From a virus (lineage: Duplodnaviria; Heunggongvirae; Uroviricota; Caudoviricetes): a stretch of DNA of 27,188 nt. Positions within the stretch are counted from its first letter, which is position 1. The number at the start of each line of letters is the position of its first letter. The stretch covers positions 1 through 27,188 of the IMG/VR virus record IMGVR_UViG_2579778634_000008; one strand, written 5' to 3'. The position numbers are program-made. This document shows positions 9,001 to 24,000 of this stretch, piece by piece.

Positions 9001-12000
9001 GTTAAGCTGAGCCGGAGGCTGACATTGGCAGAATATGGTTTTGCAATATACAACAGAAACAATGTTAATGTTACGGGCGTGCTTACTCCCATATTTTTCC
9101 TGGACAGGTTTACGGCGGAGTCGGGATCAAAAACGTATACGAATAAACCAGAAGGGAAAACATTGCAGGCAGTCTGTTCATTATTTCCGTGGAATAATGT
9201 ATTTAAGGACCGGAAAGTACCGAAGATAACCATTAATGGCAATACGGTGACGTGGTCGAATCTTGAGCAGGGGATGGGATCATATATTTATACATTCTGG
9301 GGGTGAGTTGTATGTATGGTTTAAGCATTACGAAACCAGATGGCAGCTTGTGGATAAGCCCGGGGTTTACGCCTCAGTGTCTGATCAATAAGGGAACTAT
9401 TCCGGCGACTGAGAAGGCTTTTTTTAAAACATCAATCCCGTCAGGAAAAAGTTGTTTTTTCTTTATCAGAACAGAGAAAAAGGCCGATGTCATGTACACA
9501 CATGAACAGATTGATGGATATCATGCCTTAAGGCTTCATCAAATTGTCAGGGGAACGAATCCTGGTGTTACGACTGTTTATGCTTTTGCGAATATGGTTA
9601 CTCAACCTTCTGAGTATGGTATTGCCATGTATAACCCGTCGGGTGAGATGATTTACCATGGCGAAATGATGCTGCTTGACGCGAAGTTAATACCAGTTGA
9701 TATCAAGTTTGAGAAGGATCTTGGATATCCATGCGCAATTATGCCTGCACTGGTTGGGTATTATAACTGGCAGCGTACACCTTATGACCGACCGATTTAC
9801 ACCACATCAACGGGGGCTACAGGAAATAAAATATATTCCTGTGAGCATTATTCCGGTCGTGCAACATGGGATATTCGGAAGCCGTATATAGATAAAGTGT
9901 TGGTCATTAATTCATCAATGTATGACTGATATGCCTGTCAGTATGAATATTAAGTAATAAAACTAAATTCATCTTAGATAATACGGGGTTATTTTATTAT
10001 AGGAAAAGTCTAAAAATGAAACATACCAGAATTATTTTTGCGTGCACAACTTTTGTGATGAGTTTTGTAGCAGCCCCTGCCTGTGCAGCACAAGGTGACA
10101 GTACAGTTTCTTTCGGATACGCTCATCTTCAGCTCTCTGGACTGAACAATTTTGTTAAGGATTTAAGTCTTTATAATCTTGATACTTTTAACCGTTTTAC
10201 AAACAGACACTACTTCAATTCAGGCGAATATGCAGATGCTTCTGTCCGGGGGCATGATGGCAAAGGCAAATCTCCTCAGGGGATGAGCATCAGGTATCGT
10301 TATGAGATAACGGATGAGATTGGTGTTATAACATCTTTTACATGGGCGCGTTCTATGACTAATGCGCAGGCATTTATTGATATTAACCCAGGAGATGAAT
10401 CCAGAGAGGTTAAAAATCCGGCAGCTTCAGGAAGAACAGATATCAGAGCGAATTACTGGAGCCTGTTAGCGGGTCCTTCGTGGCGGTTTAACGAATACCT
10501 CAGTGTGTATGCAATGGCTGGTATGGGCGTAGCTAAAGTTACCGCTGACCTGAAAATTAAGGACAACATTAACAGTACCGGTGGATTTTCTGAAAGCAAC
10601 AGTACGAAAAAAACAGCACTTGCATGGGCTGCTGGTGCACAATTTAACCTGAATGAAAGTGTTGCTATGGATGTCGCGTATGAAAGCTCCGGATCTGGTG
10701 ACTGGCGCACGAGCGGGGTTGTTGTAGGTATTGGCCTGAAATTCTGATCTGTATCCGACAACATGTCATAACCCGCTGTGATGGCGGGTTTTTTGTTGCC
10801 CGTGCAGGGCAAAAATCGTAGATTATGCGCGGGTGCCTTTCGGCTGATGGCTGGAAGGTGAACCTGAAGGCCTGATGTGGAAAGGCCCCGAGTCAACTTT
10901 AATGTTAACCCGAGGCCCTGACCGTACAACCTTCACAAGTAGTAGGTTAGCGCCTCTCCACTCAGGAGACAAGCGTTATGTCGCAAAAATCGCTCATCAC
11001 CGTCACAATTTGTATGACGGTAATCTTCACCATCTGGATGTTACACGGCTCGTTGTGTGAGTTCCGGCTGAATTTGTGGGGAGCGGAGTTTGCGGCGTTC
11101 TTACAGTGTAAGCAGTAGGAAAACCGCGACGGGGACGAAAGTCCCCGTCAACTGGTTGCTGAGGTTCAGCCGATATGGCACCCGTTTCAGGTGAGAGAAT
11201 GGACGACAAAATTCTCCGGTATATGCAGCGTGTTGTGAGAAATTCCCGCAACCCTGAATTTATGAATGAAGTTAAAGACGCCTGCCTTAAAAAGCAGGCG
11301 TTTTGCTTTGAAGCGCCGGATGGTTTTCTGGTGCTGCGTTCTGTGCTCAGTGACGATGGTATCCCTTATGTTCTGGTGTTACTGGGCGTGTGTACGGGGA
11401 GTAAGAGTGTTGAGCGTTATCTGCCGGAGGTGAAGACATTAACCCGCCTGGCTGGCGGACGCTGGGCCGAATTTCATACGGCAAGACGAGGATTTATCCG
11501 GCTGGGAAAACGTCTGGGCTTTGAGCGAATGCCGGATGATGAGGATGGCTTCATGGTGTTCAGGATAGCAGTCTGACTGCCACTGTATTCATCATCGAGC
11601 GTAAACCCACATTGCAATTCACATTCTGACCCTGCTCCGGCAGGGTTTTTTGTTATCTGAGGAGCCATTATGGGCGGAAGTAAAGGTGGTGGTGATACCA
11701 AAGTAAAACCAACAGCAGCGCAAATAGCACAGGAAGAGGTGGCCTGGAAAGGGTGGCAGGATTACAAAAATATTCTCCGTCCGGCAGAAGATAACTTCAT
11801 GAAAAAGGTCGATGACCTTAACAGTGAGCAGCAGTACGAAAATATCGCAGGCACAACAAATCTTGGGTATCAGAAACAGTTTGGTGAAGCGCGAAGGGAG
11901 CTGGCGGGTAATCTTGCTCAGTCCGGCGTTGACCCATCCAGTGGTCGTTTTAATGCAGTAATGGATGCAAATCAAAGCGACCAGGTGATCGGGCAGATTG

Positions 12001-21000: not shown

Positions 21001-24000
21001 AGTAACGCCGTAATCCGCACGCTGGGGAAAGTTAACCGCTTCCTGGCAACGGTGAACACGTCGTATAACCCGGAATTCCTGGTCAGTAACTTCATCCGTG
21101 ACGTGCAGACGGCGGTGATGAACCTGAAGGCGGAGCAGGGAAGGAGCGACGGTAAACTGAAAGGGCTGGATAACTTATCCGCCCTGGCTGTGGTGAAAGA
21201 CAGCCGGTCTGCCATGTCTGCCGTATACGCCAGTCTGCGTGGTAAAACCCTCACGGGCAACGGTGCGCAGTGGCAGAAGGTGTGGAAAGAGTTTGTTGAG
21301 GACGGAGGTAAAACCGGCTGGTTTAACATGGGTGACCTTGAAGGCCAGCAGAAGGAAATGGATCGCCTTGTATCGCTGGCGAAGGGAGGATGGAAAGGCC
21401 AGAGTATCGGTGCATGGCATTCGTTCCTGAACCTGGTCGAGGATGCCAACGGCGCGGTTGAAAACGCTCTGCGTCTTTCTGCCTATAAACACGCCCGTGA
21501 TGCCGGTTTGTCACGCCAGCAGGCGGCATCTCTTGCCAAAAACATGACGGTGAACTTTAACCGTCGTGGTGAGCAGGGAGCGCTGATGAACTCGCTGTAT
21601 ATGTTTGCCAACGCCAGCATTCAGGGGACCGCAAACCTGGTGAGAACGCTCGGACATCTTAATGGCGACGGGCCGTTACCGGAGCGCCTTCGCTGGAAGA
21701 ATCTCAATGTACCGCAGAAAATCGCGCTTGCAGCTGTGGGAGCGGGTTATCTGCTTGGCTCGCTTAACCGCAGTGTTGCGGGGGAGGATGATGACGGGGT
21801 TAACTGGTATGACAAGGTGCCGTCTCATGTGAAAGAGCGTAACCTCGTCATTATGAAATCGGTGTTCGGGGGCAAGGCCGGAGAGTACTGGAGTATTCCT
21901 CTGCCTTACGGGTACAACGTTTTCTTCCTGCTCGGGCATACTGCTGAAGGTGTGGCAGCGGGCGACCTGACTGCTTCACGTGCTGCCGGTAATGTTGTCG
22001 GTGGTATCCTGGGGGCATTCAGTCCTGTGGGCAGTGAAACGTCGGAAACACTGTCCGGGGCATTGCTGAAAAATGCAGCGCCGACCATTCTGCGTCCGTT
22101 TGCGAACCTTGCCATGAATGAAAACTTCATGGGGGCGCAGATTTACCAGGAGAACATGCCATTTGGCACACCGAAACCGGACAGCCAGCTGGGCAGACGT
22201 TCAACGCCTGAGGCGTACAAGGCGTTTGCATCCTGGCTGAATGCGTTCTCAGGTGGCAGCCAGTATCGTCCCGGCGCGGTGGATATCACACCGGAATCGC
22301 TGAAATTCTGGATTGACTATATCTCCGGAGGGACAGGGCGCTTCATTTCCAAAACCACAGATGCGGCGGTGAAATCGCTGAACGGTATTGATATACCGGA
22401 GCAGCAGGTGCCCTTCCTGGGGAAAATTTCGGGTGAGGTGATGCCGTATGCAGACCAGCAGAAGATGTACGACCGGATGACAGAGGTTGCGCAGTATCAC
22501 GCAGAGCTGAAGAGTCTGACCGGTGCAGAAAGAACGGCGTTCATTGACGAGAACAACGGAAAATTGTTGATGAACGGGCTTATGCAGGATACCCGGAAGA
22601 GACTGAAGGATTTGCGCAAACAGCGCGATGCCATTTATGCCGACAGTTCTCTCAGTCTGGCGCAGCAGGCGGCGATGGTGAAATCGGTAGAGCGGGATAT
22701 GAAGGTTGCCGTGGATCGCTTTAACCGCGAGTACAACAAAAAAGTGGGAGTGGATTAACAGAAATGGCCCCGTACGGAAGTGCGGGGCTGATTAAGAAAT
22801 AAACACACATTAACCTGTAATAACCGGAGCTATTAACATATAGTCAGAAAGAGTATTTCATGTGAGACAGAGAGCCGATTTATGTTTAATGAAGAAAAAG
22901 TTGCGTAAATGGCAGCGTATTTGCTGAAAAAACATGGCGGATCTATGCGTTTCATTAAGCTGATGTATCTCTCTGACCGCAAAGCAATGGAGTTGTATGG
23001 TTTTCCCATTAGTGGTGATCATTATTTCTCTATGAACAAAGGACCCGTTTTATCGCAGACATATTCTTTGGTTAAGGATGGAAGTGAAAACGAGTACAGT
23101 CCGTGGGAATCATGGATATCTGATGTAGCGGATCATAAGGTTGAAATGTGGCGTACATTTTCTTCTGTTGATGAGCTGGGGGAGTTATCGCCCGCAGAAA
23201 TAGAGTCAATGGACATAATTTTTGGTCAATATGGAGGTTGGGATGCGTTCAGGCTTTGTGATGAAACTCACAGAATTTGCGGTGAGTGGCGCGATCCGCA
23301 TGGTTCATCAATTCCAATCAGCCTTAAGAATATATTTATTGCTCTTGGAAAGTTGCCAGAAGCAGCAACAGTAATGGCGAATAGCATTAATGCGCAAAAT
23401 AATCTTGATATATTATTAGGTGATCTGAGGTAGTCGGGATGATGTTCAGCCCTTATTTGTATTTACCGGGGAGGGAAGATGTTTAATTCCGATTCCCCGG
23501 CTCCACAGGCCTAACCTAACTTTATGTAACAGTCCATGCAGGGCTGAAATCTGCCTGCTGAAATAACTCCGTTAGCCCGCTAATCTGCTTTAACCTCAGA
23601 ACTTCATCCTGGTCCATCCCCAGTTCTGTTCCGATACGTTCATCAGTCCAGCCAAGACGTGAAAGATCTCTGACAATATCAGACATTGAGGTTATCTGGT
23701 GTTTCCCCCTGGCTCTGTTATGTCGGATAGTCGCGGCAATACGTGAGGTTTGTCCCTTTCGGTCTGGATTAATACAGGTTACTGGTAGCCAGCCTTTCAG
23801 GCGTTTTCCAGTAACTGTTCTTCTACCTAGTAACTGCCTATGAAAACCATCCACCACCAGGTAATGGCTTGTTTCTTCCGAAACAACAATTGGTTGAGTA
23901 AAACCGTCTTTTTCCAGAGATTGTTTCAGTAATTTTTTTTCGCTTGGGGCCATGACATTGGGATTATAATCGTTAGCGACAATTTCATCCGCTTTTACCC

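Follow-up and report, generated by a model that had tools for sequence, protein, structure and literature searches.

The window analysed here is the whole 27,188-nucleotide (nt) stretch of the Caudoviricetes record IMGVR_UViG_2579778634_000008 (positions 1 to 27,188), and its subject is a block of five plus-strand genes at 11670-22758 that ends in a giant open reading frame (ORF) of 2,787 amino acids (aa). The window is the right end of a short-tailed E. coli prophage of the 933W/Sp5/phi24B type. By nucleotide comparison, the block of about 11 kb had 93-96% DNA identity to 186 phage records, which are nearly all Shiga toxin (Stx) 1- and Stx2-converting phages and their relatives (Sepvirinae: 933W, VT2-Sakai/Sp5, Min27, PA-series), with PhiR12_3 of ECOR13 as the closest relative (96.2% nt). 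All five proteins matched PHROG families over their full length, and every such family is labelled 'unknown function'. Judged by these matches, the block is a well-conserved module of such prophages. Sp5 (ORF76-80), 933W and phi24B (gp51-gp47) have the same five genes in the same order, so that the published genetics and proteomics apply directly; ORF76-80 were assigned to the 218-, 148-, 83- and 420/421-aa genes and the giant gene by gene order and offset. The copy in the window is a variant of those in Sp5, 933W and phi24B, from which it differs in its flanks (tail-fibre region and YadA-like adhesin on one side; Panacea, antirepressor and IbrAB-like genes on the other).

The four tightly packed plus-strand genes that the preliminary description placed before the giant ORF were found there, separated by -4, 9 and 10 nt, followed by 85 nt to the giant ORF. 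The 218-aa virion protein (11670..12326, +; PHROG 611, E 3.5e-119), the orthologue of Sp5 ORF76 and phi24B gp51, had a Gly/Ala-rich hydrophobic segment on its C-terminal side (aa 171-188), a weak match to PHROG 8003 'virion structural protein', and a distant homologue at the equivalent position in Vibrio phages. The second virion protein gene (12323..12775, +; PHROG 596, E 2.1e-83; phi24B gp50) encodes 150 aa if read from a GTG; the VT2-Sakai annotation starts it at an ATG (12329), which gives 148 aa. The 83-aa peptide (12785..13036, +; PHROG 594), named 'bacteriocin' in RefSeq phage records, is a glycine-zipper peptide as had been claimed: it matched Pfam Gly-zipper_YMGG (E 5.5e-7; score 29.6 bits, cutoff 28.9) and had six overlapping GxxxGxxxG motifs at aa 52-80. 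The 420-aa virion protein (13047..14309, +; PHROG 601, E 9.8e-189; Sp5 ORF79, phi24B gp48) had a GFAQGLLAG motif at its N-terminal end and was the most diverged of the five (77-90% aa identity to most Stx phages); some 100 Vibrio phages have its homologue immediately 5' of their giant gene, and the label 'coiled-coil' of the preliminary description finds support only in the annotation 'coil containing protein' of the Vibrio phage homologue. Glycine zippers were present in four of the five proteins of the block. PDB sequence searches with the 218-, 148- and 420-aa proteins returned nothing significant.

The giant polyvalent virion protein gene (14395..22758, +; ATG start; PHROG 616 over the full length; Sp5 ORF80/ECs1242, phi24B gp47) translated stop-free from end to end, and translation bore out the uninterrupted 2,787-aa ORF and the two motifs reported in it, HEWFH (nt 18226-18240) and HEIIH (nt 19027-19041). 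Four Pfam families matched above their gathering scores, namely LPD5 (aa 1045-1194; E 2.3e-45), LPD1 (aa 1355-1434; E 2.1e-23), MuF_C (aa 1744-1833; E 1.7e-17) and LPD38 (aa 2470-2675; E 3.5e-48), with both HExxH motifs outside these extents. From the N-terminus, on the plus strand throughout, the protein begins with a constant domain (aa 1-455; nt 14395..15759) that includes a triple glycine zipper (aa 408-424; nt 15616-15666). A Pro/Glu/Gln-rich low-complexity linker follows (aa 456-930; nt 15760..17184; composition per 100 aa, no Pfam match), and its composition suggests that it is disordered. The LPD5 unit (aa 933-1194; nt 17191..17976) starts the cargo that is common to conjugative elements, and the consensus of standalone cargo homologues likewise starts at 'IEDFGE', at aa ~935. 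After it come zincin 1, a CLCA_X-type metallopeptidase domain (aa 1176-1434; nt 17920..18696), zincin 2, a small gluzincin-like domain (aa 1467-1629; nt 18793..19281), and the MuF_C domain (nt 19624..19893), predicted to be a PBECR-type RNase domain. The C-terminal constant module (aa 1881-2787; nt 20035..22755) is backed by a 49-sequence alignment and an AlphaFold2 (AF2) model; Pfam LPD38 (nt 21802-22419) covers only part of its ~900 residues. PDB sequence searches with the giant protein and with two profiles (A1, A2) found nothing significant, and PADLOC matched no defence-system family.

LPD1, LPD5, LPD38 and MuF-C go back to Iyer et al. 2017 (PMC5512222), who defined them as domains found in the polyvalent proteins of phages and conjugative elements; such proteins were predicted to travel with the DNA and to have counter-defence roles, and MuF-C was classed as a PBECR RNase-type domain. 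By its profile matches, the giant protein has several unrelated domains, LPD families included, in one polypeptide, which is the mark of polyvalent proteins. It shares with them the multi-domain polypeptide, the metallopeptidase hub domains and a gene that lies among virion genes. Iyer et al. 2017 gave LPD1, LPD5 and LPD38 no function, whereas a CLCA_X zincin is found here to have LPD1 as its C-terminal half, and LPD38 to make up only about 200 residues of the ~900-residue constant C-module.

The HEWFH motif occupies aa 1278-1282, and HEIIH occupies aa 1545-1549. The chance expectation of HExxH from the protein composition was about 0.05, and the probability of two or more was 0.0014 in 5000 shuffles. 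The 'E..A..FA'-like stretch noted after HEWFH is real (E1369-MAARAFE), and HEIIH is followed by E1596-VQAGEF. Across 67 aligned distant homologues (31-50% identity), H1257, H1278, D1285, D1356, Y1363 and E1369 were invariant, and E1279, W1280 and H1282 were kept in 65 of the 67. Zincin 1 matched NCBIfam CLCA_X (NF041907) at aa 1176-1434 (E 1.5e-44; profile positions 3-245 of 250) with a score of 152.4 bits, below the curated cutoff of 260, and is therefore regarded as a domain-level relative and not as a member of the named subfamily. Because this match spans aa 1176-1434, LPD1 (aa 1355-1434) corresponds to the C-terminal helical half of zincin 1. CLCA_X is a predicted zincin family found mostly in phages, prophages and plasmids (Lenart et al. 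2013; NCBIfam NF041907). Both it and zincin 1 have a conserved His-Glu-x-x-His and then a conserved Asp, which in zincin 1 stands 3 residues past the second His (HEWFHSLD), whereas the CLCA_X paper writes HExxHxxxD; CLCA_X members are standalone proteins of ~250 aa, whereas zincin 1 is embedded in the giant protein. In zincin 2, the HExxH was kept in every homologue covering the region, 233-267 residues past the first motif, together with a conserved downstream Glu (E1596, 'EE..A..FA'-like); no Pfam family matched the zincin-2 region.

The AF2 model of aa 1040-1660 had a mean predicted local distance difference test (pLDDT) score of 80. Zincin 1 had its motif (model residues 239-243) in helix 237-250, preceded by strands 204-228, and E1369 in helix 328-346; zincin 2 had its motif (model residues 506-510) in helix 497-516 after two strands (478-490), with E1596 in helix 556-570. 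In this model both HExxH sites show the zincin order of sheet, active-site helix and Glu-helix, which is a statement of topology only, and the best PDB neighbours were all zincin peptidases (Pro-Pro endopeptidases, MtfA, anthrax lethal factor, Spartan). Model and conservation place the predicted zincins at aa 1176-1434 and 1467-1629, where the preliminary description suggested looking for such folds (aa ~1250-1400 and ~1520-1600), and as modelled the giant protein has the zincin-like metallopeptidase hub of polyvalent proteins. Paralogy of the two zincins was considered and not established: in hhalign only the strand-loop-HExxH core aligned, with 8.5% probability. The zincin-2 region (aa 1511-1660; nt 18925-19374) also gave weak tblastn matches (E 2e-7) to 'zeta toxin family protein' entries of Pseudomonas plasmids, which suggests that the small zincin 2 may itself be a mobile module fused to other toxins.

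The N-terminal domain occurred in 95 representative clusters, always N-terminal, in proteins of 1.8-4.7 thousand aa. Among its 61 members of at least 1,300 aa, 29 had the C-module at the extreme C-terminus, and an adjacent LPD5+CLCA_X pair lay between the ends in 21, LPD5 always directly N-terminal of CLCA_X. The C-module had 21 invariant columns in the 49-sequence alignment, with identity down to 35%; its AF2 model (pLDDT 82, predicted template modelling score 0.79) was mainly alpha-helical with one beta-rich insertion, and matched C-terminal fragments of many giant phage proteins in BFVD (TM-scores up to 0.85). Elsewhere the C-module is fused to ADP-ribosyltransferase (ART), methyltransferase, pyrophosphatase (InPase), lytic transglycosylase (LT_GEWL) or RelA/SpoT domains, and it also stands alone as a 981-aa prophage protein. 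The LPD5-zincin-zincin cargo (aa ~933-1660) is a free-standing protein of ~870 aa in a Selenomonadaceae element, flanked there by type IV secretion system genes (TraG, TrbL, M23 peptidase) and a MobA/MobL relaxase, and the CLCA_X/LPD1 region matched 459 plasmid records. As far as sequence comparison goes, the giant protein is modular, consisting of a constant N-domain, a linker, a cargo (aa 933-1833) and a constant C-module, and its relatives keep the ends and swap the middle.

Two further observations concern the C-module. The standalone 981-aa protein (Amphritea sp. contig L003, 10001-12946) lies among early-type genes (integrase, excisionase, YqaJ exonuclease, S24 repressor), a setting not obviously in line with a purely structural role of the module. 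A protein of an archaeal virus, Methanosarcina virus MetMV (MK170447.1, 40102-42492), also matched the C-module (E 7e-83; 28% identity, 92% of the query covered). For a module that presumably handles a Gram-negative envelope, this spread of hosts is wider than expected.

About 100 Vibrio phages had a syntenic five-gene block (201, 117, 77, 442 and 3,130 aa) directly after nozzle and needle homologues. In Vibrio phage 1.205.O (MG592575.1; giant gene at 18858-28250), a 77-aa counterpart of the 83-aa peptide was at the same place. The Vibrio giant protein and that of the window had 30% identity in the N-domain, 30% in the zincin-2 region and 41% in the C-module; LPD5, CLCA_X and MuF_C were absent from the Vibrio phage protein.

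The virion location of the block comes from the phi24B orthologues (bioRxiv 10.64898/2026.04.10.717836). In purified virions, gp47 gave 10,962 peptide-spectrum matches (PSMs), second among phage proteins after the major capsid protein, and was in neither the symmetric nor the asymmetric cryo-electron microscopy (cryo-EM) maps; it was proposed to be an encapsidated ejection protein. The study also observed particles that had emptied. PSMs in virions were 1,634 for gp48 (421 aa), 523 for gp51, 129 for gp50 (83 of these in the whole-virion batch) and 13 for an 86-aa 'bacteriocin homologue', the glycine-zipper peptide. The authors dismissed gp48 ('transcription factor?') and the bacteriocin homologue as contaminants. 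Both are probably genuine virion components, because they belong to a conserved five-gene block, the gp48 orthologue is essential, and gp48 PSMs outnumbered those of several accepted structural proteins (in the supplementary proteome, those of the nozzle or the adaptors). Peptides of gp47, drawn from all its regions, came from positions 204 to 2142, and the cargo part is therefore packaged too. Protein-level counts of gp47 were highest in the top gel slices and smeared downward, a pattern compatible both with processing and with its absence; the peptide sheet holds totals per peptide, not per slice. From the phi24B literature, then, the giant protein is in virions but outside the capsid and tail lattice, as is expected of an internal protein. 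The 'MuF-C metallopeptidase' of the same preprint was rejected, since MuF-C is a PBECR RNase-type domain in the paper that defined it and the zincins lie elsewhere in the protein.

The presence of all five orthologues in purified phi24B virions and the four Pfam families LPD5, LPD1, MuF_C and LPD38 uphold the preliminary description of a polyvalent virion protein module. None of the outcomes set in advance as incompatible with it (a tape-measure or fibre identity, HExxH sites outside a peptidase fold, absence from virions) was observed.

The genetics come from Sp5 (Mondal et al. 2016, PMC5155283). Deletion of ORF80 (ECs1242, 2,793 aa) or of ORF79 left no plaques and no lysogens, while DNase-resistant genomes were at the wild-type level and heads looked normal; deletion of ORF76 strongly reduced infectivity. 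ORF80 was essential even on E. coli K-12 MG1655. By these Sp5 mutants, ORF79 and ORF80 are needed for infectivity and dispensable for head assembly and packaging. In related systems, virion association holds for the giant 'DarB-like' gp69 of the Bcep22-like phage JC1 and for the products of the two genes that directly precede it, and phage PTXU04 depends critically on its LPD38 protein for infection; a cryo-EM preprint on Xanthomonas phage Xacm4-11 holds nothing on ejection or polyvalent proteins. An AAA+ ATPase (COG1483), hinted at in the 2016 paper, was rejected, as the giant protein had no Pfam or NCBIfam ATPase match and no Walker A motif.

The reading that best fits these results, held with a probability of about 0.65, is that the five genes encode internal virion proteins, part of neither the icosahedral shell nor the tail and most likely ejection proteins, and that the giant one carries an enzyme cargo. 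When the phage adsorbs, the N- and C-terminal modules and the small proteins with glycine zippers would leave the capsid ahead of the DNA, and the small proteins and the two constant modules would build, prime, open or line a route across the envelope. The central part of the giant protein would enter the cell as a pre-made package of enzymes, whose proteases may cut the polyprotein into working pieces, an idea of Iyer et al., or cleave host proteins; the host targets would probably be defence-related and be cleaved before any phage gene is expressed. Because the orthologue is essential on K-12 and the LPD38 protein is critical in PTXU04, the constant parts should do more than counter defence systems, and because the cargo also occurs in conjugative elements, it should act inside the recipient cell and not in virion assembly. 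With podovirus ejection proteins (T7 gp14/15/16, P22 gp7/16/20, N4 gp50 and its partners) the block shares encapsidation, a place outside the symmetric structure, a requirement for infection and not for packaging, and a contiguous gene set after the tail genes; N4 likewise ejects an enzyme of ~3,500 aa.

A broader version can be put forward only tentatively. In it, the N-domain, the C-module and the glycine-zipper proteins would form a general protein-delivery carrier of 933W-, Vibrio-, Bcep22- and GP4-type podoviruses, one that has no relation to the ejectosomes of T7 and P22 and is loaded with interchangeable enzyme cargos; the protease set of Stx phages, borrowed from conjugative elements, would disable a host protein at DNA entry and could influence which E. 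coli strains are convertible to Shiga-toxin producers.

Several points weigh against an ejected, cargo-bearing module. Homology to T7 gp14-16 or P22 gp7/16/20 type proteins was not found; unlike the solved ejection proteins, with which it has no sequence or fold similarity, the giant protein has no lytic transglycosylase domain, and no peptidoglycan hydrolase domain was detected in the module. The C-module had no PDB homologue by sequence or structure and no structural likeness to T7-type ejection proteins, and so can be called a putative conduit by analogy only. No C-module match was obtained for 32 of the 61 N-domain giants; truncation or excessive divergence could account for this, and so could an incomplete constant-ends model. 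The zincins are assigned from a structural model and conservation, and the second motif of the Vibrio phage homologue (aligned to aa 1541-1551) is HEILAHH, an HExxxH, so that zincin 2 may be inactive or differ in ligand spacing in that lineage. Particles of P22 ejection-protein mutants look normal, unlike those of the Sp5 ORF79 and ORF80 mutants. The latter appear without tail fibres, which is not the picture known for podovirus ejection proteins.

That last point leads to the first alternative, in which the giant and 420-aa proteins are tail-assembly or attachment factors, or a structural plug or core that is not ejected. The Sp5 ORF79 and ORF80 mutant particles were DNA-filled heads that bound no tail-fibre antibody, and the authors assigned both proteins to 'tail formation' (PMC5155283); according to the phi24B preprint, it is only in full particles that the tail has internal contents constraining its orientation. 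Such a role is unlikely, since the giant protein is abundant in virions yet invisible in symmetric and asymmetric maps, and its middle third is an enzyme set common to conjugative elements, which have no tails. An energy-requiring step, as suggested for these proteins, is backed by neither a Walker A motif nor an AAA+ match, and the loss of tails could be secondary, for example to DNA leakage or failed portal closure without the internal proteins.

A second alternative takes the giant protein as purely a DarB-like anti-restriction protein, co-injected to shield the DNA and with no part in an entry channel. PHROG 10089 'DarB-like antirestriction' matched aa 2348-2675, the homologous C-modules of Bcep22-like and Ralstonia phages are annotated DarB-like, and the counter-defence roles predicted by Iyer et al. 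2017 would fit. The giants of these phages (Bcep22 gp75, JC1 gp69 and those of GP4-related Ralstonia phages; 4.2-4.6 thousand aa) are virion-associated, lie at the end of the morphogenesis module, are preceded by virion proteins of ~200 and ~500 aa, similar to the window block, and have a homologous C-module (27-28% identity over 85% of its length). Their cargo is of the methylase/helicase type, whereas that of the window consists of LPD5, two zincins and MuF-C. With Ralstonia phage Gerry only the C-module was in common: BLASTP of the N-domain and the 420-aa protein against the Gerry proteins was not significant. The DNA methyltransferase and helicase domains that mark DarB-like proteins were found by none of Pfam, NCBIfam and PADLOC, and the PHROG 10089 match was limited to the LPD38 part. 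The essentiality of the orthologue on K-12 MG1655 and the critical role of the PTXU04 LPD38 protein would be unexpected if the protein were needed only against particular defences, and a purely anti-restriction role appears quite unlikely.

It is very unlikely that the metallopeptidase digests peptidoglycan so that an ejected conduit reaches the inner membrane, as the authors of the phi24B preprint proposed. Some homologous C-modules are fused to LT_GEWL, so wall-cutting activities do travel on these proteins. The preprint, however, places the peptidase at MuF-C, a predicted RNase-type (PBECR) domain; the nearest structures of the zincins are protein endopeptidases (Pro-Pro endopeptidases, MtfA, anthrax lethal factor, Spartan), and conjugative elements with the same LPD5-zincin-zincin protein have an M23 wall peptidase of their own. 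The large size, the position after the tail genes and a marginal match of the 83-aa peptide to a tape-measure PHROG (E 0.008) could be adduced for a tape-measure or tail-fibre protein of the conventional kind. This reading is effectively refuted: phages of this type have short tails, neither tape-measure nor fibre domains occur in the giant ORF, and the genes for fibres, nozzle and needle lie upstream.

Earlier publications already cover the genes, their location in virions and their essentiality, as well as the polyvalent classification and the proposal of an ejection protein. What is added here is incremental and computational: the constant ends with swappable cargo, the five-gene synteny with Vibrio phages, and the reading of MuF_C as a predicted RNase and not a peptidase. 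Stx-converting phages create enterohaemorrhagic E. coli, and the block makes up about 18% of their genome, with two of its genes essential for infection. Should the cargo proteases attack host proteins during entry, they would count among the determinants of Stx-phage host range, and should the N- and C-modules form an entry channel, short-tailed phages would have in it a third solution, structurally unrelated to the T7-type and P22-type ejectosomes.

Three terminator-like hairpins were found on the plus strand by a consensus scan: at 10770-10790 after lom, at 11628-11647 just before the 218-aa gene, and at 14355-14374 (7 bp, 6 of them GC, then T8) in the 85-nt gap, where it ends 20 nt before the ATG of the giant ORF. 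Late transcription in Stx-type phages is Q-antiterminated, and given this, hairpins on the coding strand could set expression ratios.

Downstream, the block is followed by Panacea, AntA/AntB, IbrB-like and PAPS-reductase genes. At 22909-27188, a 174-aa plus-strand gene, apparently the RefSeq 'Panacea domain-containing protein', comes after the giant ORF, and past it are minus-strand genes for AntA/AntB antirepressors, an IbrB-like protein, a PAPS reductase (IbrA-like) and a 4Fe-4S protein. This flank was present at a coverage of at least 80% in only 19 of 5,426 complete E. coli genomes. The P22-like gene order beside antirepressors that the preliminary description had invoked is irrelevant, as the phage is 933W/Bcep22/GP4-like and not P22-like, and the antirepressors are minus-strand cargo of a variable prophage end.

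Upstream, the window has tail-fibre genes, an adhesin with a YadA anchor, nozzle and needle homologues, and Lom. At its start (58-960, 1330-2709 and 2702-3298), the opening ORF has Phage_Tail_Tip and lambda-J C-terminal Ig domains, the next gene encodes a collagen-repeat tail fibre (phage_tail_N, four collagen stretches), and a DUF4376 protein follows; VT2-Sakai has a single 645-aa fibre gene there. A 376-aa protein (4068-5198, +) combines a signal-peptide-like N-terminus with a YadA-like trimeric autotransporter anchor. Its gene sits between the fibre and nozzle genes in an island of 43% GC (low-GC stretch 3000-5000), and these sequence features suggest a moron adhesin. The matching position in PhiR12_3 is taken by a 'putative adhesin/invasin'.

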